From NCBI GenBank assembly GCA_049793155.1, contig JBARBN010000228.1, positions 14,644 through 78,643 of the forward strand: a stretch of DNA of 64,000 bases, given 5' to 3'. The notes beneath the pieces are model-generated. The model saw only the letters and a program-made list of their open reading frames with translations. It was not told the DNA's origin and did not search any database. The DNA is from Nitrospirota bacterium (lineage in GTDB: Bacteria > Nitrospirota > UBA9217). Shown piece after piece: positions 25,994 to 58,172 of the stretch; within the stretch, counting starts at the first letter, position 1, and every line of letters starts with the position of its first letter. The position numbers were made by a program, and so were the translations under genes.

Positions 25994-26130
25994 CTGTCGC
26001 TACGCTCCAGTTCCGCTTTTGATCGTCCCCGCTTCCGCAACCTTGTCGATTGACGTATCGCAGGCCGGGAGCAGGAACACGACGGGTACGGCGGTATGCA
26101 GCCACGCACTGATCCGTTTTCTATATTGCA

Positions 26131-26325: not shown

Positions 26326-26363
26326 GGCCGCCCTCGTGATTCGCTGGTATTAAAATACCGGCA

Positions 26364-26867
26364 TTATGCCGCTTCAACATCGTCAGCGTAAATTTTTACG
26401 CCGACGCTTCTTCCCAGAAGCTCTATGCTGACGAGCAGAATGTGATGATCTTCTTTGCTCGCCAGTATCCCCTCTGCGCCCCTGAATACCCCGTTTTTTA
26501 CCCGCACCCGGGCGCCCTGTTTCAGATGCGGATAGACATCAATGTTTTCCCGGGCATCAAGGAGTATCTTCAGCGCGCGTATCTCTTCGGAAGCCACTGG
26601 TGTCGGATGTCCGGGCTCAAGGGATATGAACGTCACGGCGCCCCGGGTTTTCAAAACTCTTAGAAATTCCTCCGGACCCGGCAACAGGGAAACAAAGAGA
26701 TAGCCGGGGAACAGGGGAACGTCCACACGTTTTTTTCTGTCTTTCCATTGATTCAATTTTGTTACTGAAGGCAGAAAGGTTTCGATGCCCTTGCCTTGCA
26801 GTTCGCCCGAGACCACGAATTCATGTCGTGACTTCACGTGTACCGCATACCAGTTGGCGCTCATCAT
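26364..26867 (-). CDS. NusG-family specialised paralog (UpxY/LoaP/RfaH-like transcription antiterminator)
   Basis: NGN domain WYAVHVKSRHEFVV...FPGYLFV. C-terminal KOW-like GARVRVKNGVFRGAEGILA. Much shorter than housekeeping NusG and placed at the head of a long operon. Start taken at MMSANWYAV; the upstream 53-codon in-frame extension looks non-coding. Confidence 0.7.
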   Translation of the reverse strand: MMSANWYAVHVKSRHEFVVSGELQGKGIETFLPSVTKLNQWKDRKKRVDVPLFPGYLFVSLLPGPEEFLRVLKTRGAVTFISLEPGHPTPVASEEIRALKILLDARENIDVYPHLKQGARVRVKNGVFRGAEGILASKEDHHILLVSIELLGRSVGVKIYADDVEAA

Positions 26868-27035
26868 GGTCTTGCACCTAGGGAATGATTTGAGATTTGT
26901 ACAGACAAAGGGTGATACCGGAACGGACCATGAGGACTCGTTATGGGCTTTCCGGTCGTTGATGCTTTTTGAGCACCAACTCAGCAAAGTACCCGCATAC
27001 TCTTGCGGTGTGCGAAGCGATACCATACTATAGTC

Positions 27036-27089
27036 TTGTTAAAACTTGATGACTGTATTGTTACAATTTGATAAAGAATTTAATAACCG
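27036..27089 (-). promoter_or_regulatory. Direct-repeat array A (5 heptamers at 11-bp spacing) upstream of the NusG-like/tps operon
   Basis: TTGTTAAaac TTGATGActgt aTTGTTACaat TTGATAAagaa TTTAATA. It lies about 180 nt upstream of the NusG-like start. Confidence 0.5.
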
Positions 27090-29699: not shown

Positions 29700-30449
29700 T
29701 TAGGCAACTGTCTTCCTACGGAGACCGACGAGACCCATCAGACCCGAGCCGAAGAGGTAGATAGCAGCCGGGATCGGCGTAGCTTGCGCGACCAGTTGCG
29801 TGGAGCCGTCAGCGAAGGTACGAATCGTAGCGATGCTCGTGCCTTGTGCTCCGGAACTCGGATCAGAGCCGTAGTAATAGAGAACCTGGTCAACATAGCT
29901 CGAAGTAGCAAGCGCCCCCAGATTCTTCTCGGCATCGCCCGATGCAAGATAATTGCCCATCGTTCCGATCATGGTTCCGCCGCCATTCATCATGTTCCAG
30001 TAGGAATACGTACCGGTCTGTGCAACCGTTGCATTGTTGCCGACTGCGGCGCCACGGTAAGTATCCAGAGTGCTACCTGCAGCTGGACTGAATGACCCCC
30101 AGAACGCATAGGGGTTGATGTTACCGGCGTTTGCCGGACCGCTGGCATAGGCAGAACCATTGCCGCCATTCGCGGTATTGGACAGGATGAAGTAGGCGAC
30201 ATTGGTATTGGCCAATGTCGCGCCTGACCCTAACTTGCTAAGGCTGAAGGTGTCCGTATTGAAGGCCACATTGGTGGTAAGAGGTGCGCTCGCTGAAAAA
30301 GCACCGAGGTCTGTTGCGTACTCCGTGCCGGCGCCGGTCCCGCTATATACCACGCGGATCAGATCGCCTTCGTCGAAAGCGGCCATTGCCTGACCGGCGA
30401 AACTGACCATGAGCATCATGGCTACAAAAAGCAAAATAATTTTTTTCAT
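29700..30449 (-). CDS. Secreted protein with a VPLPA-type PEP-CTERM exosortase sorting signal
   Basis: Signal peptide MKKIILLFVAMMLMVSFAGQAMA. The C-terminus ...ATPIPAAIYLFGSGLMGLVGLRRKTVA has a P-x-P-A motif, a TM helix and a basic cluster. Confidence 0.65.
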   Translation of the reverse strand: MKKIILLFVAMMLMVSFAGQAMAAFDEGDLIRVVYSGTGAGTEYATDLGAFSASAPLTTNVAFNTDTFSLSKLGSGATLANTNVAYFILSNTANGGNGSAYASGPANAGNINPYAFWGSFSPAAGSTLDTYRGAAVGNNATVAQTGTYSYWNMMNGGGTMIGTMGNYLASGDAEKNLGALATSSYVDQVLYYYGSDPSSGAQGTSIATIRTFADGSTQLVAQATPIPAAIYLFGSGLMGLVGLRRKTVA

Positions 30450-30845
30450 TGTTTTGTTTCCTCCTGAGTTTTTTAAAATCAATCGAAATCGTTCCTACCC
30501 AGCGTTTCGTGCGTGTATATCTGGAGACGCTGCGTATGCTTTTTACCCTCAGGCGACCCGGCCATCCACCTCTGGTGGACCCGCTGGTTTTCCGTCACCC
30601 GGTTGCCCGGGCTTTGGCTTTATTCTGAAGGCCGGATGCTGACTTGCGCAGACATCCTACCGAGTTGTATACATCATCTATGCTGTCTCTATCTCCCCCT
30701 CCTTTCTTTTATGGATGTATTGAGTGGGCCTGTCAATTTGAACTGTAATAAATCATTACGCGGCAGGCTCCCGACCCGGGCTTTCTGTTACCTTATTCAG
30801 GTCAGCTAAGTACCCTGGTACTAAATAAAAGACGATAAATAAAAA

Positions 30846-30892
30846 AAGCCCGAATCCTGATAAGAACTCACTCTTATCCATGATTCGGGCTT
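30846..30892 (-). terminator. Intrinsic terminator (hairpin plus U7) downstream of gene 31056..32228; part of repeat copy 1
   Basis: AAGCCCGAATC-ctgataagaactcactcttatccat-GATTCGGGCTT. In the minus direction it is followed by UUUUUUUAUUUAUCGUCUUUUAUUU. The loop carries its own inverted repeat (gataagaa/cttatc). Confidence 0.6.
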
Positions 30893-30940
30893 TCTGGTGC
30901 GCGACTGAATTCTGTCGGTCAGCAAAGGACCCTGATGATC
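30846..30940 (-). repeat. Leader/terminator repeat element, copy 1 (about 95 nt)
   Basis: Hairpin plus TTTCTGGT(A/G)C plus the CGGTCAGCAAAGGACCCTGA(T/G)GAT box. About 85% identical to copy 2 at 32237..32335. Confidence 0.6.
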
Positions 30941-30994
30941 ACTTGTTCATTTTATGCTTCTTGATCGTTAACGTAGCGAATACTACACGTCGCA

Positions 30995-32236: not shown

Positions 32237-32285
32237 AAAAGCCCGAATCGGGATAAGAATATGATCTTATCTCTGATTCGGGCTT
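32237..32285 (-). terminator. Terminator-like hairpin in the 5' leader immediately before the start codon of 31056..32228 (candidate attenuator); part of repeat copy 2
   Basis: AAAGCCCGAATC-gggataagaatatgatcttatctct-GATTCGGGCTTT. In the minus direction it is followed by UUUGCGUUAUU and then the ATG. Confidence 0.5.
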
Positions 32286-32335
32286 TCTGGTACCCTGGCG
32301 ATATAATCCGCCGGTCAGCAAAGGACCCTGAGGAT
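32237..32335 (-). repeat. Leader/terminator repeat element, copy 2 (about 95 nt)
   Basis: Same modules as copy 1. A partial third copy (box plus a different hairpin) lies at 44441..44514. A box-only match TCAGCAAAGTACCC lies at 26977..26990. Confidence 0.6.
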
Positions 32336-32853: not shown

Positions 32854-34692
32854 TTACGAAAAATGCTTTCTGCCGCGGAATAACACAAGACACAAGACAG
32901 CCGCTAAGAATGCAAAACCAGCCGGGGAAACTGCTGGCACCGGTGTGGCGGTCTGAATTGCGGCAAAGGTTGCCTCGACAGTGTGCGCGGAGGTGACAGC
33001 GGCAATAGTATAGGTGAATGTTCCAACCGGATATTCAACTGCCGATACTGATGAGCCGTTATCCTTGAGAGCGACGAGTGTATACCCTGTCAACGGCTTG
33101 ATGGTAAAGAAGGCGCTGCTTCCATAATTGGCAGTCGGGCTGCTGGGCGTATTGGAGCCGCCCAGGGAGTTGGTGACCGTACCCACAAGGGTATAGCTGG
33201 TAATCACGGCGCCGCAGTTTGCCGTACTCCCTCCGTTCTGTCCAGTGCAGGTCCAGTACCATGGACCGGTTCCGGTAACTGTTGACGGGGTGCCGGCGGA
33301 ACAAAGGCCGGTTGTGGGTGCTGTGGTATAGGTCTGGCCGTTCGCGCTGCCGCACAGGCCGTTGATCGGGGGCGGCAGCCCCAGACTGGCTGCGAGATTA
33401 AGACGGGGTTTGACGATCGAATTGCGCGGATCGGTTATGGGAACCCCGTTCGTCGTCATGCGCGCTGTAGTCTGGTCAAGCGAGTCTGTAGGGAAAGCAG
33501 CCCTGAGTATGGCCACCGCGCCTGCCACGTGGGGTGATGCCTGCGATGTCCCTCCCATGGTAATGTTGGCCGCGGTGATCAATGCCCCCGGCGCCACCAT
33601 GGTCAGAAACGAGGCGCTGTTCGAGAAGCAGGTGACCTGATCTGCCGTTGTCGTAAAATCGGTGCAGATACCCCAGTTCAGTCCTCCTACATTGCTGTCA
33701 TAAACCGCGCCCACAGACACGACTCCCGGCGTGCAGGCAGGGCTTGCAATGCCGTTCGTATAGGCATCGTTGCCGGATGCCGCCACCGGGAGGATGCCTG
33801 CCGATCGAGTGTTATTGAGCGGCGTGACAAAAGGGTTGGTATGACTGTTGCTGCATGGGGCGGCATAGTTGACATCGTCACCCAGGCTCATATTCAGGGC
33901 GACGATATTGTATGCGCTTTTATTGGTAATGGTCCAATTGATTCCGGCAAGGACCCAGTTGGTGTTCGAGGACCCGTTGGAAAATACGTTGATCGCAGCG
34001 ATTCGGGCGCCCGGAGCAACTCCGGCCACGATCCCGGCAACATTAGTGCCGTGATTGTTCGGATCGGTATTCAGCGTAAGGTTATTGCCGGTCACATCCA
34101 CAGAGGCGGCAACTTTACAATCTGAAGGAACTCCCGGCGCAGAGCATGAACCGAAAGCTGCGAGGGTATAGTTGATCCCGGTGTCGATGACCGCCACCCC
34201 CGAGCCGCTCCCGGTAAAGCCGGCCTGAATTGCCTGAGGCTGATTGATGAGGGGCAGACTTTGGGTTAATGAAGGATAGATAGGACGATTTTCATAGACC
34301 GCCACGACCTCGGGCCGCGTCAGGAAACGTTCGAGGGCCGGACGACTTTTGAATCGAATAAAGGACATGGGGAGATGGCTATAGTCCTGAACAAGCTCGG
34401 CTTCGCCGGGCAACATCACTGCCTCGGCCCGCTGCTTGATCTCCCGGTAGCGGTCCGCCCTGAAAGAAAGGATGGCATCATCATCGTGCGGTAGATGAGC
34501 ACGGTCCCTTCGGGCTGTTGCCTCTGTTTCAACATCGCGATCATCATAAAGAACGATCACGTCCTGCGGGACACCAGCCGCCAGACTGTCCAGCACACCC
34601 TGGGGAAGGGCCGGCGCGGCGATTGCGGTCAGCGACGCGGTGCAGCAGATCGTTGCGATGGCGTATATAACGAGACGTCTGAGGATACACAA
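32854..34692 (-). CDS. Subtilisin-like serine protease (peptidase S8) with a C-terminal PEP-CTERM-like sorting signal
   Basis: Catalytic triad contexts VAVIDTGI (Asp), NNHGTNVAGIVAG (His) and GTSQASPHVAGAVAIL (Ser). Signal peptide. The C-terminus ...ATPVPAVSPAGFAFLAAVLCLVLFRGRKHFS carries the sorting tail. Confidence 0.8.
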   Translation of the reverse strand: MCILRRLVIYAIATICCTASLTAIAAPALPQGVLDSLAAGVPQDVIVLYDDRDVETEATARRDRAHLPHDDDAILSFRADRYREIKQRAEAVMLPGEAELVQDYSHLPMSFIRFKSRPALERFLTRPEVVAVYENRPIYPSLTQSLPLINQPQAIQAGFTGSGSGVAVIDTGINYTLAAFGSCSAPGVPSDCKVAASVDVTGNNLTLNTDPNNHGTNVAGIVAGVAPGARIAAINVFSNGSSNTNWVLAGINWTITNKSAYNIVALNMSLGDDVNYAAPCSNSHTNPFVTPLNNTRSAGILPVAASGNDAYTNGIASPACTPGVVSVGAVYDSNVGGLNWGICTDFTTTADQVTCFSNSASFLTMVAPGALITAANITMGGTSQASPHVAGAVAILRAAFPTDSLDQTTARMTTNGVPITDPRNSIVKPRLNLAASLGLPPPINGLCGSANGQTYTTAPTTGLCSAGTPSTVTGTGPWYWTCTGQNGGSTANCGAVITSYTLVGTVTNSLGGSNTPSSPTANYGSSAFFTIKPLTGYTLVALKDNGSSVSAVEYPVGTFTYTIAAVTSAHTVEATFAAIQTATPVPAVSPAGFAFLAAVLCLVLFRGRKHFS

Positions 34693-35216: not shown

Positions 35217-35351
35217 GTCTCATCACCTTTTCGGTATGCATGCCGGATGCTGCAGGGGGCATCGTATGTGGCGCCCCTTCAATAGGCCTTACTGTTCCAT
35301 AACTGCAAAAGATTTATAATTAATGCAATGCACGCGTCACCCTATCAGTTG

Positions 35352-35395
35352 ATTGTTACAAGGTTATGAAGGACAGGTTAATTTATAATTAATTT
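35352..35395 (-). promoter_or_regulatory. Direct-repeat array C upstream of 34902..35216
   Basis: gaTTGTTACAagg TTATGAAGgac aGGTTAATTtat aATTAATTT. Almost identical in architecture to array D. Confidence 0.5.
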
Positions 35396-35412: not shown

Positions 35413-36456
35413 CTAAATATTTTCCGGAGCATTGATAACTGCTTTTCGCCGATAGCGGATCATGTAAATCAACAGCAGTAGAGGGAAGAGGTATTGCCCG
35501 ACTGCGATGAGGGTCAGGTCCATTGTTCTGGCGGATGTGTAATTAAAGTACGCCAGCAAAACATTGTCAATCCGGTGAAAAAGATGGATGACAAAAAGGA
35601 GCCCCAACCCCGCGGCGAGCCCCTTGATTTTCATTGCCCACGGTACTGAGCTAACAGCAAGGACCAGCGACGTAAAGATGACAATGCTGAAGGTTTCATA
35701 GTAGACGGTGGTTTCCTGCGCGAGGCCTACATGGTGATCGAAGAGAGAAAAACCCAGGACCATAAACCAATCCAGGAACCGGATATACCCGTGATGGACC
35801 TTCATCCATACAAGAAATAGACCGCTGGATATCAGCACAAAGCGTACAAAAAACCACGCTGCTTTCATGGGCATGCCCTTGTTCGACTCTTCCCGGTCGA
35901 TCCATTTCAGCCACAGGATGCAGGCCAGCAGGACAAATAACATAGTGAATACCTGGCCCAAATACACATGAAAAACCTCAAAGAGCCCCCGGTCATACCG
36001 ACTTACCATGAAGGTGAGTGCCAGCCGGAACAGGTTGCCCATATAGAGTAAGGGGATTCCCATTGCAAGACCGGTTGTCTTCTGTCGCGCCGTAGCGGGA
36101 TGAAAGATAACGAAGCTCAGGAAAAGGCCCGTTGTGAAGAGCGGAGTGCACTCGGGGATGATCTGGAACGCCAATGCGCCTTCCGATACCGTGTCGTTGA
36201 CAGTCGATGCGGGAATGCCGAAAGCATTCAGGACCAGGACCAGGGTCGCCGCAACGTGTTCGTTTATCGGCTTTGTGAAAGACGGCGGCAATGCGTTAAT
36301 GATCGCATAGATCGCAATGCAGGAAAGGGCGAACGCAGCGGCAAAGCGAAAACTACGCGACCGGATCATATTCGATATTAAAGATCCGAGAGAATCGCCT
36401 TTTTTTTCGGCGGCCTTCTGTTTCTCATGTCGATGCTTTGATTTCTGTTTTGCCAT
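35413..36456 (-). CDS. Exosortase (EpsH/Xrt family transpeptidase)
   Basis: About 8 TM helices. A conserved Cys sits in IIPECTPLFTTGLFLSF (exosortase E-C-[ST]-G/P-like motif) and Arg residues in FRLALTFMVSRYDR. It shares the window with five proteins carrying matching C-terminal sorting tails. Its start is 3 nt from the upstream stop. Confidence 0.6.
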   Translation of the reverse strand: MAKQKSKHRHEKQKAAEKKGDSLGSLISNMIRSRSFRFAAAFALSCIAIYAIINALPPSFTKPINEHVAATLVLVLNAFGIPASTVNDTVSEGALAFQIIPECTPLFTTGLFLSFVIFHPATARQKTTGLAMGIPLLYMGNLFRLALTFMVSRYDRGLFEVFHVYLGQVFTMLFVLLACILWLKWIDREESNKGMPMKAAWFFVRFVLISSGLFLVWMKVHHGYIRFLDWFMVLGFSLFDHHVGLAQETTVYYETFSIVIFTSLVLAVSSVPWAMKIKGLAAGLGLLFVIHLFHRIDNVLLAYFNYTSARTMDLTLIAVGQYLFPLLLLIYMIRYRRKAVINAPENI

Positions 36457-36458
36457 AC

Positions 36459-37859
36459 TTAACGTGTCCGCGGGTCATCCCCTTTCAGCGGAACGGTCGA
36501 CAAGTCAAGGGCATTGCTCAGGTCATTGGCAGCTGCGTCGCGCGTACCCAAAGGTGCCAGGTTCCATCGGCGTTCGATGAACTTCAGAATGGATGTCGTG
36601 TCGTACTGCGTGTGATCGACAAATCCTTTCTTTGCAAAGGGTGAAATGATGATCGCCGGGACTCTCGTACCGGGGCCCCAGCGGTCGCCCTTCGGCGGGG
36701 CCACATGGTCCCACCGGCCGCCGTTCTCGTCATAAGTGATGATGATCACGCTGTCGTTCCAATAAGGACTTTCCTGCACCGCCTTGACGAGTTCAGCCAC
36801 ATGCAGCTGTCCAAAAAGGAGCGCTGAATACCCGGGATGTTCGTTGTAGGAGCCGATCGGCTTGATGAAGGACACAGACGCCAATGCGCCTTTATTCAGG
36901 TCCGTGAGAAAGTCATTCTCGTCCTTAAGATGCGCTGCTTTGGCGACCGTATTGTCGGAAAAATTTGCGAAATAGGCAAAAGGCTGGTGATGGAACTGAA
37001 AATCTCCGGCCGGCTTTCCGGCGACGGCGTCGTTCCATCCTCCGGAATACCAGGTCCAGGAGAGGTTCTTCTCCGTAAGCCGGTCTCCGATAGTCGGCTG
37101 GGTCTGCGGCGGAACAAGATCTTTTGCGCCTTTCGGATGAGGCTGGTTTACCGAGTAAGAGGTATTGACGACGAAGCCATCAGGCGTCACAGCGCCGTCT
37201 TCTTCGAGGATCCCTTTCGAATCAAGCTTTGCTCTCATCAAGGGCGGTGCATCAGGCCAAACCGGCGTGCAGGCGCAGATGAGCCAGAAATGATTTAGGA
37301 ACGAACCGCCGAATGCCGCCTGAAAGAAATTGTCGGCGAGCGTGTATTGCCTCGCCAGCTTTCCCTCGGGCAGGTCGCCGGCATCAACATAGCTCATGAC
37401 GAGCCCTGGATTGTCACTCCAGGTCGCGAACTTGTCCATTTTGCCTCCGTCTATCTGGAGTTGGTTCTGGTAGAAGCGATGAACGAGGTCCCCCGTTTTT
37501 TCGTTCCCGGGAACATACCGGGCCAGATCATACGGTTTTGCCGGCATCTGCTCCGGAAATCGAAGATCGGGCACTGGAGGCTTCAGACAGGTATCCAACG
37601 GCCTCTTAAGAGTTTTAAGCGGCCTGCCCTCTTTGTCAATCTGGTTCAACGCATCTCCCGCATTCGCGATCCCGTTCGCGCCGGGAAAATTCCCATAAAG
37701 GCCGTCGAAGCTCCAGTTCTCCTGGTAGATGACGATGACATGATTGATCTTTGACTGGAGCGCTGTCGTAGTTGTATCTGCGGCCTGCACGAGCGTTGTG
37801 CAGAAAATCGTCGCTGCGGATAACGCAAAAATCCTTACGAACCGAGAGAGAAAAGGCAT
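36459..37859 (-). CDS. Phosphoesterase-family protein (PlcN/AcpA-type non-haemolytic phospholipase C / acid phosphatase), secreted
   Basis: Signal peptide. INHVIVIYQENWSFDGLYGNFPG is the PF04185 phosphoesterase N-motif. Immediately upstream of the exosortase and in the same transcriptional direction. Confidence 0.7.
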   Translation of the reverse strand: MPFLSRFVRIFALSAATIFCTTLVQAADTTTTALQSKINHVIVIYQENWSFDGLYGNFPGANGIANAGDALNQIDKEGRPLKTLKRPLDTCLKPPVPDLRFPEQMPAKPYDLARYVPGNEKTGDLVHRFYQNQLQIDGGKMDKFATWSDNPGLVMSYVDAGDLPEGKLARQYTLADNFFQAAFGGSFLNHFWLICACTPVWPDAPPLMRAKLDSKGILEEDGAVTPDGFVVNTSYSVNQPHPKGAKDLVPPQTQPTIGDRLTEKNLSWTWYSGGWNDAVAGKPAGDFQFHHQPFAYFANFSDNTVAKAAHLKDENDFLTDLNKGALASVSFIKPIGSYNEHPGYSALLFGQLHVAELVKAVQESPYWNDSVIIITYDENGGRWDHVAPPKGDRWGPGTRVPAIIISPFAKKGFVDHTQYDTTSILKFIERRWNLAPLGTRDAAANDLSNALDLSTVPLKGDDPRTR

Positions 37860-37977
37860 ATCTCCTCCTTAATTTAAAGCTATTGTACTAGCCGATAGTC
37901 GGCGACCGGTAGGTTTAGTTGGAAGACATGGATCATTCGCAGCCGATCATGTTTCTTATTCATGCGTTATGCTACGC

Positions 37978-38022
37978 TATCAGAATATTGTTACAGATTT
38001 ATGAAGGGCAGGTTAATTTATG
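37978..38022 (-). promoter_or_regulatory. Direct-repeat array D upstream of the phosphoesterase-exosortase operon
   Basis: taTTGTTACAgat TTATGAAGggc aGGTTAATTtat gATTAATTC. It lies about 120 nt upstream of the phosphoesterase start. Confidence 0.5.
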
Positions 38023-38052
38023 ATTAATTCTGTTGAAGAAAAGGGATTATAA

Positions 38053-38077
38053 TAAAAAAAAAAGGAGCTGCAAAAAA
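38053..38077 (-). terminator. Intrinsic terminator downstream of the transposase remnant
   Basis: GGAGCT-gcaaaaaaccgat-AGCTCC. In the minus direction it is followed by U10. Confidence 0.45.
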
Positions 38078-38132
38078 CCGATAGCTCCCCGAACATGAAC
38101 AAGCAGACGCCGCGCCTCATTAATTCGTACTG

Positions 38133-38303
38133 TTATGCCGCGCAATCACGGTCCTTGTGCCATTCCTTTCCATGCGTGTGATACCGCCTCAGCCACTTAT
38201 AAAACCATTGTTTAGACCGGTTGAGACTGATATAAATGCTCTTCGGCGATTCGCCCTGCAGGATGTAGCGCCGAACTGCTGCTTTTCTGATCTCTTCTTC
38301 CAT
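38133..38303 (-). pseudogene. IS630-like transposase N-terminal helix-turn-helix fragment (remnant)
   Basis: MEEEIRKAAVRRYILQGESPKSIYISLNRSKQWFYKWLRRYHTHGKE then stops. A transposase helix-turn-helix, but no DDE domain follows. Confidence 0.45.
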
Positions 38304-38441
38304 CACATGCTCCTTTGAGACGGCCGGCAGTGACAACCAAAGCCGTTCACTACCGGCACGCCTCACCCGCCCTATGACGGGAAATCCTCATAACTCTGAA
38401 GTTGAATGCTTTTATCCGTTTATTCGCTACTTCGCTGCGCA

Positions 38442-41400
38442 CTAAGAATGACGCCGTCTCCGGGATATATATCCTGCCAGCATCGCTACCGTCGCCATCA
38501 TCCCCCATATCCCGAGGGCCGGGACCGAATCCGCCTGCGATGCTGAGATCGTCATCGATCCAGCGGCGCTTCCCTGATAGTTGGGGTCGCTGATCGTCGC
38601 GACCACGGTGTAATTGCCCATGGCGGACGGAGCAGTGGCAGAACCATTGTAGGTCACCGTAACAGCACGTCCGGCAGGATTAGTGGTTACTGTAACACTC
38701 TTGGCCGAGCCGTCGTAGGTGAAGCTCATTGTACCCAGTGTGACAATCGCCGATGCTTTATCGATCGTGTAGGTGCCGCCGGCCAAGCCGGAATAGCCTG
38801 GCTGGGCAACTGTTGCCGAAACGGCGTACGCTCCCGCGTTGACCGGAACAGTGATGCCGCCGTTGTAGGTCACGTTGGTTAATAGTCCCGGCGGAATCGT
38901 GGTCACGCTGACCGGCTTTGCCGTTCCATCGAATGTGGCTGACAATGCGCCGAGAGTCATGATCGCTTCCGTTGTATAGGGCGGTGCGGCAGTGTAGTGC
39001 ACAGAAGACTGTGCGGCAGCGGGTGTCGGTTCCACATTATTGTTACTGTCAATTGCCTGGCTGTAGAACTCGTAATAGCCATAGCCCTGCGAATAATTAA
39101 ATGTTGCCGTATACGGCGCTGTCGTACTGGTTGCAAACTGCGTCCAGGCACTCCAGGATGTGTTGTCCGAGGAATAGCGGTAGTAGAACTTCACTTGCGC
39201 TATGGTCGCGCCGGAGGCCTGCGTATTTATCTGCAATACCGGTCCATTGCTGCCGTACTCCTTGGCGTCAAAGCCATAGCTTGGCGGTGTAGCGTCAGTC
39301 GAGCTTTCAGTTACAGGCTTGACGACAAGAGAGATGAGTTTATTGCCGCCCCACTTGGTCTGGGCAAAGGATGTGACATCCCACTGATACCAGATATTGC
39401 TCGTAGCGGAATCAAGGGTCTGGGTGGAAACTGCAGCTCCGAGAGCCGGTTGGGTGTTCCAGGTAATGCCGGTCTCTGTCCAGGTGTCGTCAGAGCCGCC
39501 ACGTACTTCGGCCGGCATTGGCGCTCCGGCAACCTTCCAGTTCCAGAGCTGGAGATTTGCGCTGGTAATGGTTGCGCCTGCCGGGATTGCGGAAAGATCG
39601 AACCTCAACCAGCCCCGCTCATTGCCGTAGCCGGCTGCGGCGCTTTGTACATACAGGTTAGTGCCGGACCCGTAATTGGTAGTCGGGTTTCCGCTGGCAA
39701 CCTGGGCATCGGCCACTGGTGTGAGGAAGTATGTTCCTGCGCTTGAAGAGGCGGATGCTGTCAGCGTGATTGGTGAGACGGTCGTCCCGGCCGGCGTAGA
39801 GTCTACTCTGGACGAAACAACGGAGGCCTCCGGTAAGCTTGAATTGGTTGTCGAGACGTTATCGCACCGGAACCTCAGCCCGTAGTTCTCCATGGTCGGG
39901 ACACCGGAAACGAGAAGTATATCCCCCACATTGCCAGGGACGGTCTTGTTCGCATAGCCGGTCGCGTCCATGAGCGTTATCGTCTGACCGTTCTGGTCGC
40001 TTACGGAGTTGGCGCCGGCTTTCCTGGCCAGGAACTCGACGTAGTGGTTCTTGGACTGGTCATTCCAGAAAGCGCCAATGGACGACATGAAGGCCGGCTT
40101 AGCCAGGCTGGCGTCGTGGCCGACGATATTGAATTCGACGCCATCGGAGTAGATCCCTTCCTGGTCAACAAATTCCGGGTTGCCGCCGTAGAAACTCCCC
40201 TTGCCCCAGGTTTCGATGATGTCTCCCGGTTTGAGGACACCGGTTTTGAAACCAAGGAAGCTGCGGTACATCTCCTGTTCAGCCAGATGATGCGCCGGAT
40301 TGATCGTACCATCGGCGTTGACCAGGTCTGTCGGGACCTGCTGAGAGCCGCGGCGCGCAAGGGTCTCGGGCGTGGCGCTCAGGAATCGGATGAAGGCGTC
40401 CTCGAAGGTCGTCTTGGTGTCGTTGTCGTTCATCATGGTGACGACCGCGCGGAAACCTCCCGAGAACTCGGTGTTCAGGTGATACCGTGGACCGCCGACC
40501 TGGTAGGCGTTGGCCTGGTCCGAATGCTGGCTCCGCATGAAATCAACGATCCCTTCGCGGCAGAGATAGGTCGAGGTGAGCGGGGCCGTGTCGGCCCAGG
40601 TCCAGTTGGCAGGAGGATGGGCATACATGTAGTTGTTGATCGCCACGGTATAGGTCTGATTCAGGTTGATCGGCTGACCATTGAACTTGACGCTCGCCGG
40701 TGTGCCATCATAGGCGGTCACATCCAGAGCGCTGGAGAAACCGGCGTTCATATTGGTTACCTTCAAAAAATTTACGATCTCCTGACCGCTCATGTTGACT
40801 CGATAGAAAGAGTCGTCGTTCCAGGGGAAGGTCTCGTAGATCTGCAAATAGGTTACCGGTCCGGCGGGGATATCGGCGCGGACACCGCCGCCGGCCTCGA
40901 TGGCGAGATCGGTTTGTCCAAAGAGCTGCTCGGACTTCCAGCGCATGGCGTCGCAGATCCACTGGCCCGCGGTATTGTTGCCGCTCCAGGGGTATTCGTC
41001 CGCCGACCACCATTTCATGTCATTGTCGAGCATCAGGTCGTCGGCAGTGTAGCCGACGACTTCATCCACCGGGTGGCCGGGGTGGTCGTTATTGTATTGT
41101 GTGGTCAGATCATTGAGCAGCGTCTGCACATCCGGGTCGGGTGAGATGTCTGCATCGCGGATCACGTGATTCGTGGCGCTGAAGTACTTGCCCGTGTCGG
41201 TCAACTGCAGTTCGCCGATGTATTTCATATAACTGTTCGCTTCGGTGAAGATCGTTTTGTAATTGAGCATCTCCGGCTGCCAGACGGTGTCGGCAATCGT
41301 GTGCCAGTGCCCGGTGACAACTACCTCGGGGAGTTTGGCCGCTCCGTTATCGGCCAGCACCGGTGCGGTCGGATCGACCAGGGCGCTGTGTCCGCTGTGC

Positions 41401-42947
41401 GCGGCAAGAATGACAAGATCGACATTATTGGGAGCATTGCGCAGCTCATTCACATAGTCGGACATATTGCACACAGCGCTGCCGCTCCATGCGCAGGGAA
41501 CGACTTCCAGGATATCGGCAAGGGTCGGCCCTATTTCCGCCGTATCGATGGTGTAGCCGATGATGCCGATCTTTTTACCATTGATCGTAACGACGTTGGA
41601 TGCGGCGAAGTACGGAAGGTGAGTATTTTTGTCCCGAACATTGACCGAAAGCACGGGTACACCGGAATTCCTGAGCGAGGTCAGATTGCTGATGTAGTTT
41701 ATATCGCGGACATCATGGTTGCCGACAACGACCGCGTCCATGCCGCGTCCGCGCTGGGCATTCAGTTTATTGGAGAGCAGGGTATAGAACATCGTCATAC
41801 TGCCATTGCCGTTCATATCGCCGATTGGGTTTCCCTCGGAGATATCACCTGCATCGATGACCAGCGAGTTCGGTTGAGCCGCGGTAAGCTGCAGCATTTC
41901 GGCGGCCAGGTAGGCCGCACCGCCTACGTCTTCAAACTGGCCGGAACCGGTCCCGTGGGCCGGGATGATCATCTTGTGCGGCGTCACCCGGGCATGGGTG
42001 TCGTTCACGTGGAAGATTGTCAAACCGGCTGAGGTCGCGGTAAAGTTCGCGGTGCAGGACTTGTTGTCCTCCATGACCACGGTGATCGTGGCGCTGCTGC
42101 TGCTCGAACAACCGCTCCACCCGCTGAACGCGGAGTTGTTCCCTGCTGTGGCGGTGATGACGGCGTTGCTCCCCGAGGTATATGGGTTGGCGACACCGGA
42201 TATGGTTCCGCTGCCGTTGCCCGCCGTGGCGGTGGTCAGCGTGTAATTCTGGGTTGCCTGGCCATCGGCAACGGTCCCCTGTATCTCAAAATCGCCGGCC
42301 GTGGTGTTGGCGACATCGAAGATATACCAGGTGCCGCTTGCTCCGCCTCCATAGTTGACTATCCGGAAGGTCACGGCCGTTCCGGCTGGAACGTTTTGTA
42401 ATGCGCTAATCGCTGAGAGGTCAATAGCTGCCAGCGAGGCCCCCGAGGACGCGCTGGAAGAATAGCCTAACGTTGTTATGTCGGCAAAAGCACCTGTCCC
42501 CACCTGGTACTGGAGAACGCCGTTTGCAGGTCCGGTTCCAGAGCGCCGGTAGTCGAATTTGCTGATCGAGCTGAACGAGACCTGCTTGCCGGTGTTAGCC
42601 GTGATCGTGAAGGAGGCAAACTTGTTGTCGGTAACGGCCGCAGCAGCATTTGCACTGTTCCAGGCAACGCCCCCCCAGGCCCGTGCGGCGCCGGAGCCGG
42701 TAATACCGACACCCGAGCCGCGGGTCAGGCCGACGACGGTCAGGTTTGGATCGCTCACCGACGCGGCCAGCGGCGAAGGCCCAAAATTATTGGTACCCCC
42801 GGGGAGGGCATGAACATCAAAGCCCGCCAGGGTGGCCGCGAAAACAGACCCGGCAACCGCCGTCAGCCCGAGGGTAATGATAAGGAAAGCAATTAAAAAT
42901 CTTTTAAGATGGGCTGCAAAGATCCGGTTGCCTGAATGCATGGTCAT
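38442..42947 (-). CDS. Giant (1501 aa) multidomain cell-surface 5'-nucleotidase/metallophosphoesterase with an exosortase sorting signal
   Basis: Signal peptide. InlB-B-repeat-like segment (TLTTATAGNGSGTISGV...AFSGWSGC). Calcineurin-like metallophosphatase motifs HVNDTHAR, DAGDISEG and GNHDVRD. DNRLRE-like domain (LYVQSAAAGYGNERGWLRFDLSAIPAGATITSANLQLW). Two MBG-like repeats. The C-terminus ...SVPALGIWGMMATVAMLAGYISRRRRHS carries the sorting tail. Confidence 0.75.
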   Translation of the reverse strand: MTMHSGNRIFAAHLKRFLIAFLIITLGLTAVAGSVFAATLAGFDVHALPGGTNNFGPSPLAASVSDPNLTVVGLTRGSGVGITGSGAARAWGGVAWNSANAAAAVTDNKFASFTITANTGKQVSFSSISKFDYRRSGTGPANGVLQYQVGTGAFADITTLGYSSSASSGASLAAIDLSAISALQNVPAGTAVTFRIVNYGGGASGTWYIFDVANTTAGDFEIQGTVADGQATQNYTLTTATAGNGSGTISGVANPYTSGSNAVITATAGNNSAFSGWSGCSSSSSATITVVMEDNKSCTANFTATSAGLTIFHVNDTHARVTPHKMIIPAHGTGSGQFEDVGGAAYLAAEMLQLTAAQPNSLVIDAGDISEGNPIGDMNGNGSMTMFYTLLSNKLNAQRGRGMDAVVVGNHDVRDINYISNLTSLRNSGVPVLSVNVRDKNTHLPYFAASNVVTINGKKIGIIGYTIDTAEIGPTLADILEVVPCAWSGSAVCNMSDYVNELRNAPNNVDLVILAAHSGHSALVDPTAPVLADNGAAKLPEVVVTGHWHTIADTVWQPEMLNYKTIFTEANSYMKYIGELQLTDTGKYFSATNHVIRDADISPDPDVQTLLNDLTTQYNNDHPGHPVDEVVGYTADDLMLDNDMKWWSADEYPWSGNNTAGQWICDAMRWKSEQLFGQTDLAIEAGGGVRADIPAGPVTYLQIYETFPWNDDSFYRVNMSGQEIVNFLKVTNMNAGFSSALDVTAYDGTPASVKFNGQPINLNQTYTVAINNYMYAHPPANWTWADTAPLTSTYLCREGIVDFMRSQHSDQANAYQVGGPRYHLNTEFSGGFRAVVTMMNDNDTKTTFEDAFIRFLSATPETLARRGSQQVPTDLVNADGTINPAHHLAEQEMYRSFLGFKTGVLKPGDIIETWGKGSFYGGNPEFVDQEGIYSDGVEFNIVGHDASLAKPAFMSSIGAFWNDQSKNHYVEFLARKAGANSVSDQNGQTITLMDATGYANKTVPGNVGDILLVSGVPTMENYGLRFRCDNVSTTNSSLPEASVVSSRVDSTPAGTTVSPITLTASASSSAGTYFLTPVADAQVASGNPTTNYGSGTNLYVQSAAAGYGNERGWLRFDLSAIPAGATITSANLQLWNWKVAGAPMPAEVRGGSDDTWTETGITWNTQPALGAAVSTQTLDSATSNIWYQWDVTSFAQTKWGGNKLISLVVKPVTESSTDATPPSYGFDAKEYGSNGPVLQINTQASGATIAQVKFYYRYSSDNTSWSAWTQFATSTTAPYTATFNYSQGYGYYEFYSQAIDSNNNVEPTPAAAQSSVHYTAAPPYTTEAIMTLGALSATFDGTAKPVSVTTIPPGLLTNVTYNGGITVPVNAGAYAVSATVAQPGYSGLAGGTYTIDKASAIVTLGTMSFTYDGSAKSVTVTTNPAGRAVTVTYNGSATAPSAMGNYTVVATISDPNYQGSAAGSMTISASQADSVPALGIWGMMATVAMLAGYISRRRRHS

Positions 42948-53622: not shown

Positions 53623-54312
53623 TCAACTTGGATTGCTGTCATCACTCGCCCGCTCTTCACATGCCGTGTGGCGAATGACCTTCCCTTTGACCATATACAC
53701 GACCATCTCCGCGATGTTGGTGGCATGGTCGGCAATGCGCTCAAGATACTTCGTAATGTAAGTGAGGCGAACAGCGCGTGATATGTTCTTTGGATCTTTC
53801 AGCATATACACGAGCAATTCATTGAAAATCTGATAGTTCAAATTGTCCACATAGTCATCAGACGCACACACCTTCATGGCGAGGTCGGCATCCTCTCTCA
53901 CAAAGGAATCAAGGCTGTCCTTGAGCATTGTCTGAGCCGCTTCTGCCATCCGAGGAATATCGATAAATGGCTTGAGCGGCGGTTCTTCGTTCAGCTCGAT
54001 GGCCCGCTCGCAGACGTCGACGGCCAGATCGCCCATGCGTTCGAGATCGGTGATGATCTTTATGGCGGTTGTAATCAAACGGAGCGTGCTGCCCGTGGGC
54101 TGCCAGATGGCAAGCAGTCTGATGCACTCTTCCTCGATCTCGACATCGTAATTATTGACAATGGCGTCGCCGTCGATGACCGTGATTGCCAGGTTCCGGT
54201 CCCGTTCAACCAGCGCTTTGACGGACTGCCTGATGGACTCTTCGACAAGGCCCCCCATTTTGAGGACCCGCTCCTTCAGCGCTTCAATATCCTCTTCTTT
54301 TTGTCTGGCCAT
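53623..54312 (-). CDS. phoU: Phosphate transport system regulator PhoU
   Basis: Two PhoU repeats with the conserved ...ITDLERMGDLAVD... and ...YLERIADHATNIAE... helices. Confidence 0.85.
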   Translation of the reverse strand: MARQKEEDIEALKERVLKMGGLVEESIRQSVKALVERDRNLAITVIDGDAIVNNYDVEIEEECIRLLAIWQPTGSTLRLITTAIKIITDLERMGDLAVDVCERAIELNEEPPLKPFIDIPRMAEAAQTMLKDSLDSFVREDADLAMKVCASDDYVDNLNYQIFNELLVYMLKDPKNISRAVRLTYITKYLERIADHATNIAEMVVYMVKGKVIRHTACEERASDDSNPS

Positions 54313-54405
54313 TCAGTACTCCCTCTTTGTAATTGAAGCATTATAAGAATACGGATTGAATAAAATCAAAGCACCGCCAAGCATTCGTCGTTCAACCTTT
54401 TCCGT

Positions 54406-55170
54406 TTAACCGAACCTTCCCGTTATATAATCGTCGGTTTGCTTATTGTCCGGGTTCGTAAAGATCTTCTCCGTGGTCGCGTACTCGATCAGTTCGCCCA
54501 TATACAGCAGGCCTGTCATGTCCGATACGCGGGCTGCCTGCTGCATGTTGTGAGTGACGATGATGATCGTAACATCCTTTTTCAACGACACGACAAGTTC
54601 CTCGATCTTGGCCGTTGAAATCGGGTCCAGCGCCGAGGTGGGCTCATCAAAGAGGAGGACTTCCGGTTCAACGGCCAGGGCCCGTGCAATGACAAGACGC
54701 TGCTGTTGTCCTCCGGACAACTCATAGGCGCTCTCATTCAGCTTGTCCCTGACTTCCGTCCAGAGCGCCGCGTGTTTGAGCGCATCTTCGATCCGCCCGA
54801 CGAGTTCCGATTTGTTCCTGATGCCTCTCAATCTGAGTCCATATGCTATGTTCTCGGCAATGCTCATGGGAAACGGCGTCGGCTTCTGGAATACCATTCC
54901 GATTCGGCTGCGTAGATGGATGAGGTCAATGTCATGCGCCAGAATATTCTTGTCCTGGAAGTGGATCTCCCCCTCATACCGGTGTTTCGGATACAGGTCA
55001 TGCATTCGGTTAAAGCATCTGAGCAGCGTCGTTTTGCCGCAGCCGGACGGACCGATCAAGGCGGTAACCTTTTCCTTATAGATCGTCAGCGATATATTCT
55101 GAAGGGCGTGAATATCTCCGTTATAGTAAAAATCCAGGTTTTTGACCTCGATCTCTCTCGTTGCTGTCAC
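54406..55170 (-). CDS. pstB: Phosphate ABC transporter ATP-binding protein PstB
   Basis: Walker [13 protein letters not shown] signature [14 protein letters not shown], Walker [13 protein letters not shown] and a PstB-like C-terminus. Confidence 0.9.
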
Positions 55171-56009
55171 TGCTTATACCTCCACTTTAAGATGAGTCTT
55201 CCGGCAATAGTAAGCATGAGAATAAAAAGGGTTATGACCAATGCCGCGCCCCATGCCTGGGAATGCCAGCTTTTATAGGGCCCCATGGCATACTGGAAGA
55301 TAGTGACCGTCAGCGACGCGATAGGCCGGTTCATGTCCGTTGAAAAAAAATTATTGTTGAACGAGGTAAACAGGAGCGGCGCGGTTTCACCCGCGACCCG
55401 GGCGATGGACAGCAGAATACCGGTCAGTATGCCGGTGGCCGCGCCGCGGTACACGACCTGGACGATCACCTTGTAATAGGGAGCGCCGAGGGCAAACGCC
55501 GCTTCCCGCAACGTCCAGGGCACCAGTGACAGCATGTCCTCCGTTGTCCTGAGCACCACCGGGATCATGATGATCGAGAGCGCGAACGCCCCCGCCCAGC
55601 CGCTGAAATGATGGAGCGGTCTGACAAGGATCGCGTACACAAAAGCGCCGACCACAATGGAAGGAATGCTGACCATGATGTCGGAAATAATACTGATTAT
55701 CCTCGCGATCGTTCTTCCCCGGGCATACTCGGCCAGAAAGGTCCCGCCGAGAACGCCGACCGGAACCCCGATTAACGTGGCGGCCAGGGTAATCATCAGT
55801 TGCCCGATAAAAGCGTTTTTTAAGCCCCCGCCTTCAACACCTGCAGGTGCAGGATCATTGAAGAACAGGCTTAAGTGCAACGCGCCCAGGCCATGGATGA
55901 GAACGTCGGCCAGGATATACACAAGCCAGAAGAGACCCGTTGCCGCGGCAAGACCGCTCAGCGTCAGCGCGACGAAGCTCTCTATCTTTCTTTTTTTCTC
56001 GACGTTCAT
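55167..56009 (-). CDS. pstA: Phosphate ABC transporter permease PstA
   Basis: Six TM helices. EAA-like loop ...[18 protein letters not shown]. Its stop overlaps pstB. Confidence 0.85.
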
Positions 56010-56947
56010 CGTGAATACTTTCTCTCTGCCTTCAGAAGAAAGAATTTGGATATCGCAAGGATGATAAAACTCATCGCGAACAGTATGAGCGCGAGATAAA
56101 AGAGTGACGAGAGATAGAGGTCGCTGTCAGCTTCCGTAAATTCGTTCGCAAGGCTCACCGTTATGGTGGAGGCAGCGTCGAGAAGCGACGTGGCGATCTT
56201 GTGATTGTTCCCGAGCACGAAGGCTACCGCCATGGTCTCGCCCAGCGCCCGGCCCAGGGACAGTGCTACGCCCCCAAACACGCCGAGCTTAGAATAGGGA
56301 AGCACCACGTTTTTGACCACTTCCCACTGAGTCGCCCCGATAGCATAGGCCGACTCCTTGACCACGGAGGGGGTCAGATTGAATGAATCACGCGCGATGC
56401 TCGCCGTGAACGGAATGATCATAATGGCGAGGATAACACTCGCCGTCAGCAGGTCGATGCCCATGGGAGTGCCCTTGAACAGAATGCCGACGAGGGGCAG
56501 CTGTCCGATGGTGTTCTGGAGCGCTGGTTCGATATACTTAGACATGATCGGAGCAAGGGCGAACAGCCCCCACATGCCATAGATGATGCTCGGGATTGCG
56601 GCAAGTAGTTCTATTGCGATGCCGATGGGACCCTTCAGAAAATTGGGCGCGATTTCTGTGACAAAGATGGCGATACCGATGGCGGTGGGTATGGCGAAGA
56701 GCAGGGCCAGGCCGGTCGTGAGGAATGTGCCGTAAATTGTGGTTGCCGCGCCGAACATTCCGGTCACGGGATTCCACGCCGTCGAGGTCAGAAATTCAAT
56801 CAGCCCGAACTTCCCGATCGCGAGTGAGGACTCCTGCAAAAGCACGGTGATGATGCCGATAATAAAGATGATGACGGTAAAGGAGGCGATTGCAGTGAGG
56901 GAGAGAAAGAGCATCTCAGGGATGTTTTTTTTCGACAATATGGCCAA
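56006..56947 (-). CDS. pstC: Phosphate ABC transporter permease PstC
   Basis: Six TM helices. ESAYAIGATQWEVVKNVVLP loop. Its stop overlaps pstA. Confidence 0.85.
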   Translation of the reverse strand: MAILSKKNIPEMLFLSLTAIASFTVIIFIIGIITVLLQESSLAIGKFGLIEFLTSTAWNPVTGMFGAATTIYGTFLTTGLALLFAIPTAIGIAIFVTEIAPNFLKGPIGIAIELLAAIPSIIYGMWGLFALAPIMSKYIEPALQNTIGQLPLVGILFKGTPMGIDLLTASVILAIMIIPFTASIARDSFNLTPSVVKESAYAIGATQWEVVKNVVLPYSKLGVFGGVALSLGRALGETMAVAFVLGNNHKIATSLLDAASTITVSLANEFTEADSDLYLSSLFYLALILFAMSFIILAISKFFLLKAERKYSR

Positions 56948-57066
56948 TGCATGGACCTTTCCGCATTAACGAACGATTCCCAACAAAACGTAAACGGGTC
57001 AGGCATCATTGGTATAGATACCTGACCCGCTTATTTCAATCTATTTCTTATCTATCGGACTGACGT

Positions 57067-58080
57067 TTACTGAATGCCGTTCGCTTTCCAGTACGCCCTA
57101 ATTTTATTCTGCAGCGATAGCGGAAGGGGAACATAAATCAGCTCTTCGGCTTTCGCCGCGCCGTTTTTAAATGCCCAGTCAAAGAATTTCACGACCTTCA
57201 CATTCGATTCCTTTTTCTCCTTAGCGAGCAGGATGAACGTAGCGCCCGCAATGGGCCACGCCTTCTTGCCCGGGGCATTGGTGAGCATGTAGTAGAAATC
57301 AATCTTCGGATCGAACGTGCCCGTGGCAGCGGCGTCTTCAAAACTGTCCGAACTCGGTGTGACGACGGCGTTGGCGGAGTTCTTAAGAAGCGTATATGCC
57401 ATATTGTTCTGTTTCGCATAGGCGAATTCCACGTACCCGATGGAGTTTGCCTGCTGCTGCACGTAATTGGCTACACCCTCGTTGCCTTTCCCGCCGATGC
57501 CGACGGGCCAGCTCACAGATGTCCCGGTCCCGACTTTTTCTTTCCACATCGGTGACACCTTGCACAGATAATCCGTAAAGATAGCGGTCGTGCCAGAACC
57601 ATCGGAGCGATGGACCACGGTAATTTCAGCCGCCGGAAGGTTGAGCTTCGGGTTCAGCGCTTTGAGTTTCGGATCGTTCCAGTTTTTTATTTCGCCCAGG
57701 TAGATTTTAGCGACCGCTTCCGAATCGAGGGTCAATTCTCCCGCCTTCACGCCGGGAATATTGACCACGAGTACGTCCGCGCCAATCACTGCCGGGAATT
57801 GGATCAGGTTGTCCTTAGCGAGCTCTTCCGGCTTCAGCGGCTTGTCCGAAGCACCGAAGTCAACCGTCCGTTCGGTGATCTGCTTGATGCCTCCGCCCGA
57901 ACCGATGGATTGATAGTTCAACTTCATTCCCGTCACCTTGTTGTATTCATTGGCCCATGCCGAGTATACGGGATAGGGAAACGTGGCGCCTGCGCCGTTC
58001 AACATCTCTTCCGCCTGCGCCATATTGAACGACAGCAGACCTATAACCACTAACGCAAAAACGAGTACACTTCTTTTCAT
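57067..58080 (-). CDS. pstS: Phosphate-binding protein PstS
   Basis: Start at MKRSVLVFALVVIGLLSFNMAQA, preceded by an AAGGAGG Shine-Dalgarno. Motifs GAGATFPYPVYSAWA, SIGSGGGI and HRSDGSGTTAIFTDYL are canonical PstS. Confidence 0.9.
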   Translation of the reverse strand: MKRSVLVFALVVIGLLSFNMAQAEEMLNGAGATFPYPVYSAWANEYNKVTGMKLNYQSIGSGGGIKQITERTVDFGASDKPLKPEELAKDNLIQFPAVIGADVLVVNIPGVKAGELTLDSEAVAKIYLGEIKNWNDPKLKALNPKLNLPAAEITVVHRSDGSGTTAIFTDYLCKVSPMWKEKVGTGTSVSWPVGIGGKGNEGVANYVQQQANSIGYVEFAYAKQNNMAYTLLKNSANAVVTPSSDSFEDAAATGTFDPKIDFYYMLTNAPGKKAWPIAGATFILLAKEKKESNVKVVKFFDWAFKNGAAKAEELIYVPLPLSLQNKIRAYWKANGIQ

Positions 58081-58129
58081 CTTTTTTTCCTCCTTAAATT
58101 TTAAATCATTGAAATAGTATGCCATGTAA

Positions 58130-58172
58130 TTGTTACAGGATTGTTACAAGTTGATTAATTTTCTGTTAAATT
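58130..58172 (-). promoter_or_regulatory. Direct-repeat array G: candidate Pho-box-type promoter of the pstSCAB-phoU operon
   Basis: TTGTTACAgga TTGTTACAagt TGATTAATttt CTGTTAAAttg is four heptamers at exact 11-bp spacing. In the minus direction it is followed after about 8 nt by a CATACTAT -10-like element, then AAGGAGG and the pstS ATG. Confidence 0.6.

Follow-up and report, generated by a model that had tools for sequence, protein, structure and literature searches.

The AcpA protein of Francisella is a broad-specificity periplasmic acid phosphatase. With its Burkholderia counterpart it represents a subfamily of phosphoesterases (PF04185; TIGR03397; PDB 2D1G) made with an N-terminal signal peptide. 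Exosortase H (XrtH; TIGR04177) is paired with proteins ending in an IPTLxxWG-CTERM sorting tail (TIGR04174), and its gene usually follows that of the substrate. To our knowledge, very few exosortases have been studied experimentally and it is unclear when most of them are expressed. Promoters of the PhoB/PhoR type (E. coli pstS and phoA; those of cyanobacterial SphR) carry tandem direct repeats, phased at 11 bp, which stand where the -35 element would be, at a constant spacing from the -10, and these sites lie upstream of pstSCAB-phoU and phosphatase genes (PMC4415409, PMC1906773). PHO boxes have been defined as 11-nt direct repeat units (PMC4415409), and the cyanobacterial SphR boxes as tandem CTTAACCT units with 3-bp linkers (PMC1906773). 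Here we analyse a 64-kb stretch of DNA from a Nitrospirota bacterium (contig JBARBN010000228.1; 'the window') in which a gene for an AcpA-type phosphatase, acpA, is immediately followed by one for an XrtH-like exosortase, xrtH. We consider it probable that the two form a unit under a Pho-box-type promoter, put together by a lineage-specific cassette swap, and that what links them is co-regulation and not a shared reaction.

A profile search confirmed that the phosphatase belongs to PF04185 (E 3.2e-85; 286.8 bits, cutoff 23; covering positions 1-355 of the 356 in the profile). Of the double assignment to a 'PlcN/AcpA' family, made in a first-pass annotation of this sequence, only the AcpA part holds: the protein passes the NCBIfam AcpA subfamily model TIGR03397 (467.3 bits, cutoff 362.75) and fails the phospholipase C (PLC) model TIGR03396 (146.5 bits, cutoff 580.25). 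It is also shorter, at 466 aa, than the latter model (688) and is without the PLC C-terminal domains. These profile scores put the predicted enzyme with the AcpA type and not with the PlcN type. Among solved proteins its best match is Francisella AcpA (PDB 2D1G), with which it can be aligned over its full length (residues 32-453, E 1.8e-29) at ~30% identity. The alignment pairs QENWSFD with QENNSFD, FGGS with FGPS and YDENGGRWDHV with YDDSDGDYDHV, leaving QEN, FG.S and YD(E/D)..G..DH as conserved motifs. The pair E47/N48, aligned to E43/N44 of 2D1G, we take to be metal ligands, from residue roles in the AcpA structure, and by the same roles the metal ligands and the nucleophile of the Francisella active site are conserved. 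The protein begins with a Sec-type signal peptide (MPFLSRFVRIFALSAATIFCTTLVQA|AD) without a twin-arginine motif. It differs from the Francisella and Burkholderia proteins in the modest identity to the solved enzyme and in its genetic setting, a Pho-box-like promoter and an exosortase partner gene.

The observation in the first-pass annotation that the enzyme carries no sorting tail is correct. Judged by eye, the C-terminus includes no transmembrane or hydrophobic segment beyond the signal peptide, and the last 44 residues match no sorting-domain model. Nitrospirota AcpA orthologues (452-477 aa) all end without a tail. For this reason we rejected the idea that acpA has lost one, which is also opposed by the conservation of the xrtH start in loci without acpA. 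Homologues from other phyla (P0134, P0135, P0137 and P0155; 64-69% identity) terminate in LPNTGG or LPSTGG followed by a transmembrane segment and an RRR cluster, tails which by their sequence are sortase anchors. Surface anchoring of the AcpA family by classical sortases is, on this reading, common elsewhere, whereas the enzyme in the window is tail-less beside an exosortase.

The product of xrtH has TIGR04177 as its best model (90.0 bits against a cutoff of 86, residues 37-187), a marginal assignment lying 4 bits over the threshold. The next best exosortase model, XrtX, reaches 56.7 against a cutoff of 170, and the general exo/archaeosortase signature TIGR04178 is matched with 51.2 bits against 23. 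The catalytic core (residues 37-187) has the Cys, Arg and His of the exosortase H system as C103, R144 and H163, invariant in an alignment of 31 sequences. The protein differs from the described system in its size since, at 347 aa, it is twice the length of the curated model. Beyond the ~158-residue core it has a conserved C-terminal extension of ~160 aa (residues ~190-347; window 35413-35890) with invariant polar residues in YYETFS (Y252-F256, YYETF), HLFHRIDN (H291, H294, R295 and N298), D313 and GQY (Q321). The extension is predicted to fold as four helices (residues 195-342; AlphaFold2, mean pLDDT 77). Foldseek found no PDB neighbour of the XrtH model at E <= 0.001, and the C-terminal half has no Pfam match even at E <= 10 and no NCBIfam match. 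An internal duplication was considered and rejected (N- against C-terminal half by hhalign: probability 0.9%, E 0.059). More than 200 homologues of ~345 aa occur in Nitrospirota, Thermodesulfobacteriota and Syntrophia-like metagenome-assembled genomes.

All genes in the window are oriented on the minus strand, and acpA and xrtH form the tight two-gene unit that had been proposed. The '3-nt gap' originally given for it was a difference between coordinates: the adjacency is real and the true spacer is 2 nt (Table 1). The genes are in different reading frames and are therefore not fused. The junction is identical in two relatives, L033 and L034 (related loci are designated here by L numbers). While acpA is preceded by a strong Shine-Dalgarno sequence (AAGGAGGAG), xrtH has only a GGA at -13 and no good Shine-Dalgarno; because of this, the suggested translational coupling, with termination at the first gene and re-initiation at the second, is plausible. 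RNA folding revealed no stable hairpin spanning the junction. The promoter motif described below does not score above -6.6 bits (weight matrix) anywhere inside the two coding regions, and neither a consensus scan nor the motif matrix picked up a promoter-like signal in the 3' part of acpA. Consensus sigma-70 promoter and terminator scans of the unit gave match counts at chance level and are uninformative. Taken with the spacing, these results make co-transcription plausible, as had been supposed, and acpA-xrtH is a real and probably co-transcribed unit. On its upstream side, a terminator-like hairpin looks like the end of the preceding unit (LTD protein, receiver, 5'-nucleotidase, helix-turn-helix open reading frame (ORF)). 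Its energy is unexceptional (z = -1.15), it was called on its architecture and it is missing from the list produced by the consensus terminator scan.

The direct-repeat 'array D' and -10-like element noted previously about 120 nt upstream of acpA are real, but their nature had been missed: they constitute one copy of a regulon-wide Pho-box-like promoter. On the coding strand (38027->37974) the array reads TTAAT-N6-TTAAC-N6-TTCAT-N6-GTAAC-N10-TAGCGT, with repeats at 38027-38023, 38016-38012, 38005-38001 and 37994-37990. After the 10-nt spacer, the -10 hexamer TAGCGT (form TAnnnT; 37979-37974) is 114 nt from the acpA ATG. A 54-nt weight matrix identifies 12 distinct sites in the window, all on the minus strand, intergenic and upstream of genes; shuffled sequence scored 1.6 on average and 12.9 at most. 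Four of these sites (27022, 49659, 53263 with 60.6 bits, and 59500) had not been used in building the matrix. When the matrix was built without either of the two near-identical copies flanking the unit, the acpA site scored 28.9 bits and ranked 10th among 127,894 positions, against a shuffled maximum of 12.4.

The Pho-box assignment is anchored by a copy directly upstream of pstS in the window, which scores 37.3 with a matrix derived from the exosortase-island sites only, the pstS site being left out. The same exosortase-island matrix finds the motif (score >= 20) upstream of pstS in 35 of 75 independent metagenome loci, mostly at 20-50 nt and at up to ~240 nt, and these 35 include most of the loci with a PstS identity of at least 64%. 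More distant pstS loci have the canonical CTGTCAT-N4-CCGTCAC in the same place. The window as a whole is a phosphate island, with pstSCAB-phoU, a purple acid phosphatase, a 5'-nucleotidase and a PstS-like protein, and several of its scavenging genes code for proteins with tails. Other copies of the motif head units encoding a pentapeptide protein, the purple acid phosphatase and a tailed protein (site 53263), an LTD protein, a receiver and the 1501-aa 5'-nucleotidase (site 44538), and a REC-histidine kinase gene adjoining pstS (site 59500). Because the motif precedes pstSCAB-phoU here, pstS in related loci and phosphatase units, and because its architecture matches that of published boxes, we read it as the putative Pho box of this lineage, to which a PhoB would bind with induction under phosphate limitation. 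It departs from the PhoB/PhoR boxes in its consensus (TTAAC/TTCAT/TGTAAC versus CTGTCAT) and in usually having four units.

The pairing of the two genes is confined to a narrow lineage. We searched 32 GTDB-representative xrtH loci (XrtH identity 42-73%) for acpA homologues within 10 kb by tblastn (E <= 1e-5) and found none. The adjacency occurs only in the window and in the two relatives with 94% XrtH identity (L033 and L034, from two samples), and is already absent at 77-80%: L035 (80%) has a gene for an 889-aa sedolisin-like protein with a sorting tail upstream of xrtH, and L037 (77%) has a promoter, a 381-385-aa gene and a 520-aa gene before it. The window and L037 are collinear at the DNA level across the whole island, except that homology ends at 38134 and returns exactly at 36459, the end of the acpA stop codon. 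From this break it follows that a 1.67-kb acpA cassette replaces a 3.0-kb cassette. The unit is flanked by promoter copies (35339-35394 and 37974-38029), direct repeats 2,635 nt apart and 84% identical over 56 nt, which suggests a duplication during the swap. By blastn the acpA promoter matches the post-xrtH promoter of L037 (74.7% over 87 nt) and has no such match to the L037 pre-cargo promoter; it looks like a duplicate. Such flanking repeats are also a substrate for recombinational loss of the unit. The acpA orthologues that are not joined to xrtH have other neighbours: at 86% identity a purple acid phosphatase, a histidine phosphatase and a 5'-nucleotidase, at 79% a metallophosphoesterase and at 71% a downstream pstS.

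The position upstream of xrtH is variable in content. In ~24 of 38 loci the gene just upstream encodes a tail composed of (A/V)PALGxWG or GPALS, a hydrophobic helix and a basic cluster, and ends within -32 to +128 nt of the xrtH start; in relatives this tailed protein is likely to be the substrate. This agrees with the exosortase H system, from which the present lineage differs in that the gene upstream of xrtH is not one for a substrate. In about half of the related loci the upstream gene overlaps xrtH or lies no more than 10 nt away (gaps of -32 to +10). At 10 distinct Nitrospirota loci the motif, in the same orientation, stands at the head of a unit ending in xrtH, and the cargo between motif and xrtH can be nothing (L007 and L042), a 157-aa protein (L004 and L014), tailed proteins of 814-892 aa (L002, L019, L020 and L024), two genes (L037) or AcpA (the window and L033/L034). 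About 20 xrtH loci labelled delta-proteobacterial had no match at the threshold used for these; as an internal negative control, they show the matrix to be specific to the lineage. From the tight upstream junctions and these motif-headed units, the dependence of xrtH on an upstream promoter looks like the family norm. Two delta-proteobacterial metagenome-assembled genomes contain 4-5 long xrtH copies each (L011, L017, L025, L028 and L031; L005, L013, L015 and L023). Nearly every copy has its own upstream gene for a protein with a GPALS (or PALG-type) tail, and about half of them overlap it by 8 nt; by sequence, one exosortase accompanies each substrate, and this arrangement recurs within the genome.

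The sequence itself shows which genes these are, how they join, the motif and where it occurs, the non-conserved adjacency and the synteny break; from them we infer a scheme whose PhoB binding, phosphate-starvation induction, translational coupling and XrtH cleavage targets are conditional. When phosphate is limiting, a response regulator of the PhoB family would activate transcription by binding to the four phased repeats that stand in for a -35 element. AcpA would be translated from its strong ribosome-binding site, exported by the Sec route and would hydrolyse phosphomonoesters outside the cytoplasm. XrtH would be translated at a low level, probably by ribosomes which end at the acpA stop and re-initiate, and would process tailed proteins co-induced by neighbouring Pho-box units, chiefly the 1501-aa 5'-nucleotidase and a subtilisin-like protease. 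The pairing itself would have arisen when, in this lineage, one cassette replaced another in a variable slot bounded by a conserved promoter position and by xrtH. The exosortase gene would habitually ride behind whatever gene fills that slot, here one for a tail-less exported acid phosphatase.

As to the broader proposition, that the phosphate-starvation regulon of this Nitrospirota clade takes in an XrtH-type exosortase together with its cargo and that the slot between Pho promoter and xrtH is an exchangeable cargo position, we regard the case as evenly balanced. If it is true, phosphate limitation would induce both the scavenging enzymes and the one responsible for sorting their tailed members to the cell surface. 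The acpA-xrtH unit is an ordinary, lineage-specific operon and adds nothing new on exosortase chemistry. Its value lies in the regulatory setting, and the proposed Pho-box regulon around it, with an exosortase and candidate cargo, is modestly novel: our literature search turned up no publication in which an exosortase system is connected with the Pho regulon or phosphate starvation, and none on XrtH. Comparative sequence analysis here ties one exosortase family to phosphate limitation and to candidate cargo (the giant 5'-nucleotidase and the subtilisin). In addition, it defines a variant of the Pho box in an uncultured lineage of Nitrospirota and offers phosphate starvation induction as an experimental handle on XrtH processing.

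The first-pass annotation suggested that the pairing is regulatory or functional rather than one of enzyme and substrate, and gave as its functional example lipid-phosphate handling linked to anchoring. The regulatory part is supported and the functional part is not. In a functional coupling the phosphatase would act on a lipid- or glycan-phosphate acceptor, or on a by-product of the exosortase reaction, within a single pathway. The tightness of the 2-nt junction would suit this, as would a locus (L042) with xrtH and acpA within 2.7 kb of each other and another (L039) with 9 kb between an acpA orthologue and an XrtA/EpsI gene. We nevertheless judge it very improbable: the adjacency is missing from all 32 reference loci and at 77-80% identity, unrelated genes fill the slot upstream of xrtH in close relatives, and acpA orthologues (79-86%) reside in phosphatase clusters without xrtH or, more generally, accompany a purple acid phosphatase, a histidine phosphatase, a 5'-nucleotidase or pstS. 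Moreover, AcpA is a soluble protein with a signal peptide, matching Francisella AcpA over its full length, and not a membrane lipid phosphatase. That the phosphatase is itself an XrtH substrate, recognised through a non-canonical or internal signal, is scarcely credible. The gene immediately upstream of xrtH is indeed a likely substrate gene in most related loci, the NCBIfam 'midcut-by-XrtH' family shows that internal signals exist and distant AcpA homologues bear LPXTG sortase anchors; however, neither a sorting-domain match in the terminal residues nor a hydrophobic segment past the signal peptide is apparent, and the Nitrospirota orthologues are uniformly tail-less.

It is also rather unlikely that the arrangement is a neutral accident, in which a rearrangement put acpA beside xrtH, the latter has its own unrecognised promoter and the junction is devoid of regulatory meaning. 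The restriction of the adjacency to one species-level lineage and the 84%-identical promoter copies, consistent with recent recombination, fit such an event. Against it stand the lack of a promoter-like signal in 3' acpA, the overlapping or tight upstream junction of xrtH in about half of the related loci and the Pho-box-like promoters heading its unit in 10 of them. A different objection concerns the identity of the regulator: the motif might be bound by another member of the OmpR family (for example, one responding to envelope stress or biofilm formation) and the island would then not be a phosphate-starvation regulon. Several of the target genes are of unknown function and one motif-headed region also carries a cyclic di-GMP (c-di-GMP) riboswitch, and neither PhoB nor PhoR was identified in the scanned parts of the window. 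We consider this quite improbable given that the motif stands immediately in front of pstSCAB-phoU in the window and ahead of pstS in 35 related loci, and that its targets include the purple acid phosphatase unit, AcpA, the acpA-pstS operon of L042 and the 5'-nucleotidase unit.

A number of points do weigh against a co-regulated two-gene unit under a Pho-box-type promoter. No terminator was found between the xrtH stop and the next promoter copy, 20 nt later, so that read-through from xrtH into the following unit is possible; in addition, there may be an unrecognised internal promoter for xrtH. As no OmpR/PhoB-type DNA-binding regulator or PhoR turned up in the scanned parts of the window, the regulator is assigned from the association with pstS only. 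In L042, where an acpA orthologue and a pstS paralogue lie behind their own copy of the motif, acpA and xrtH are separated by two genes and have separate promoters, and this second, looser neighbourhood could hint at more than coincidence. Finally, the tails of the candidate XrtH substrates score below the IPTL-CTERM model TIGR04174 (11.2 against a cutoff of 20.5), which is a further difference from the described exosortase H system.

Table 1. Features of the acpA-xrtH unit and of the surrounding island (positions are those of the window)
Feature	Position	Strand	Details
acpA, AcpA-type acid phosphatase (466 aa)	36459..37859	-	stop TAA 36461..36459
xrtH-like exosortase gene (347 aa)	35413..36456	-	start ATG 36456..36454
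acpA/xrtH spacer, 2 nt	36457..36458	-	TAAGTATG ('GT' on coding strand); read from sequence
Shine-Dalgarno of acpA	37862..37871	-	TAAGGAGGAG; read from sequence
Pho-box-like promoter of acpA-xrtH ('array D')	37974..38027	-	four 11-bp-phased repeats and -10
Terminator-like hairpin	38050..38090	-	GGGGAGCU...AGCUCC then U10; stem -10.3 kcal/mol
Next Pho-box-like promoter	35339..35392	-	starts 20 nt past xrtH stop; heads DUF5076 ORF and subtilisin unit
612-aa subtilisin-like protease	32854..34692	-	tail PVPAVSPAGFAFLAAVLCLVLFRGRKHFS
1501-aa 5'-nucleotidase/DNRLRE protein	38442..42947	-	tail SVPALGIWGMMATVAMLAGYISRRRRHS
pstS-pstC-pstA-pstB-phoU cluster	53623..58125	-	pstS first
Motif directly upstream of pstS	58116..58169	-	anchors Pho-box assignment

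Proteins encoded near xrtH resemble those of the exosortase H system in their C-terminal ends, where (V/A)PALGxWG is followed by a hydrophobic helix and then a basic cluster; by eye, the tail VPALGIWG followed by a transmembrane helix and RRRR resembles the IPTLxxWG motif. The best candidate substrate in the window is the 1501-aa 5'-nucleotidase, whose tail (SVPALGIWGMMATVAMLAGYISRRRRHS) is nearly identical to those encoded by genes directly preceding xrtH in relatives. The subtilisin-like protease is a second candidate: in L004 and L014, full-length homologues lie no more than ~0.8 kb upstream of xrtH and are separated from it by a 157-aa ORF.

Three small secreted proteins (29700-30482, 43684-44376 and 49833-50411) end in TPIPAAxWLFGSGxxGLxxxRRK, a tail class distinct from PALGxWG; two of the three exceed the VPLPA-CTERM cutoff. 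The window is without a matching XrtA- or XrtD-type exosortase for such VPLPA-type tails. Either XrtH handles both tail classes or a second exosortase is encoded elsewhere in the genome. A c-di-GMP-I riboswitch (RF01051; 30549-30628, minus strand; 53.9 bits against a gathering threshold of 35) lies ~65 nt upstream of the gene for one of these proteins (260 aa, with the VPLPA-CTERM-like tail; 29700..30482), so that an exosortase-type cargo gene appears to be under c-di-GMP control within the phosphate island.

An RNA-like element of ~100 nt is present in two copies in the window (30835-30945 and 32237-32335, minus strand), both downstream of Pho-box-like promoters, and recurs in L033, L037 (three copies), L001, L002, L004, L014, L019, L020, L024 and L042. 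It comprises an invariant 5' CAGGGUCCUUUGCUGACC, a variable middle, a conserved CACCAGAAAGCCCG and a terminator hairpin with a U-run. The middle looks like a small hairpin by eye, which RNAalifold did not predict. The element has no match to an Rfam family and may represent a small RNA under phosphate control or a leader of the terminator type.

An HTH_23 ORF (38133-38366, minus strand; listed as 77 aa, probably shorter) separates the 5'-nucleotidase gene from the acpA cassette. Since it is retained with 85% DNA identity in L037, we regard it as a resident small regulator-like gene and not as an insertion-sequence scar. Further away, a 3464-aa ORF and a 533-aa ORF just upstream of it are located downstream of a NusG paralogue (26364..27026), the whole region spanning 13998-27026. 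In L035 the counterparts of the two ORFs bear the annotations two-partner-secretion exoprotein (TPS domain) and ShlB/POTRA transporter. A weaker copy of the Pho-box-like motif (27022-27075, 25.9 bits) belongs to the NusG-paralogue gene.

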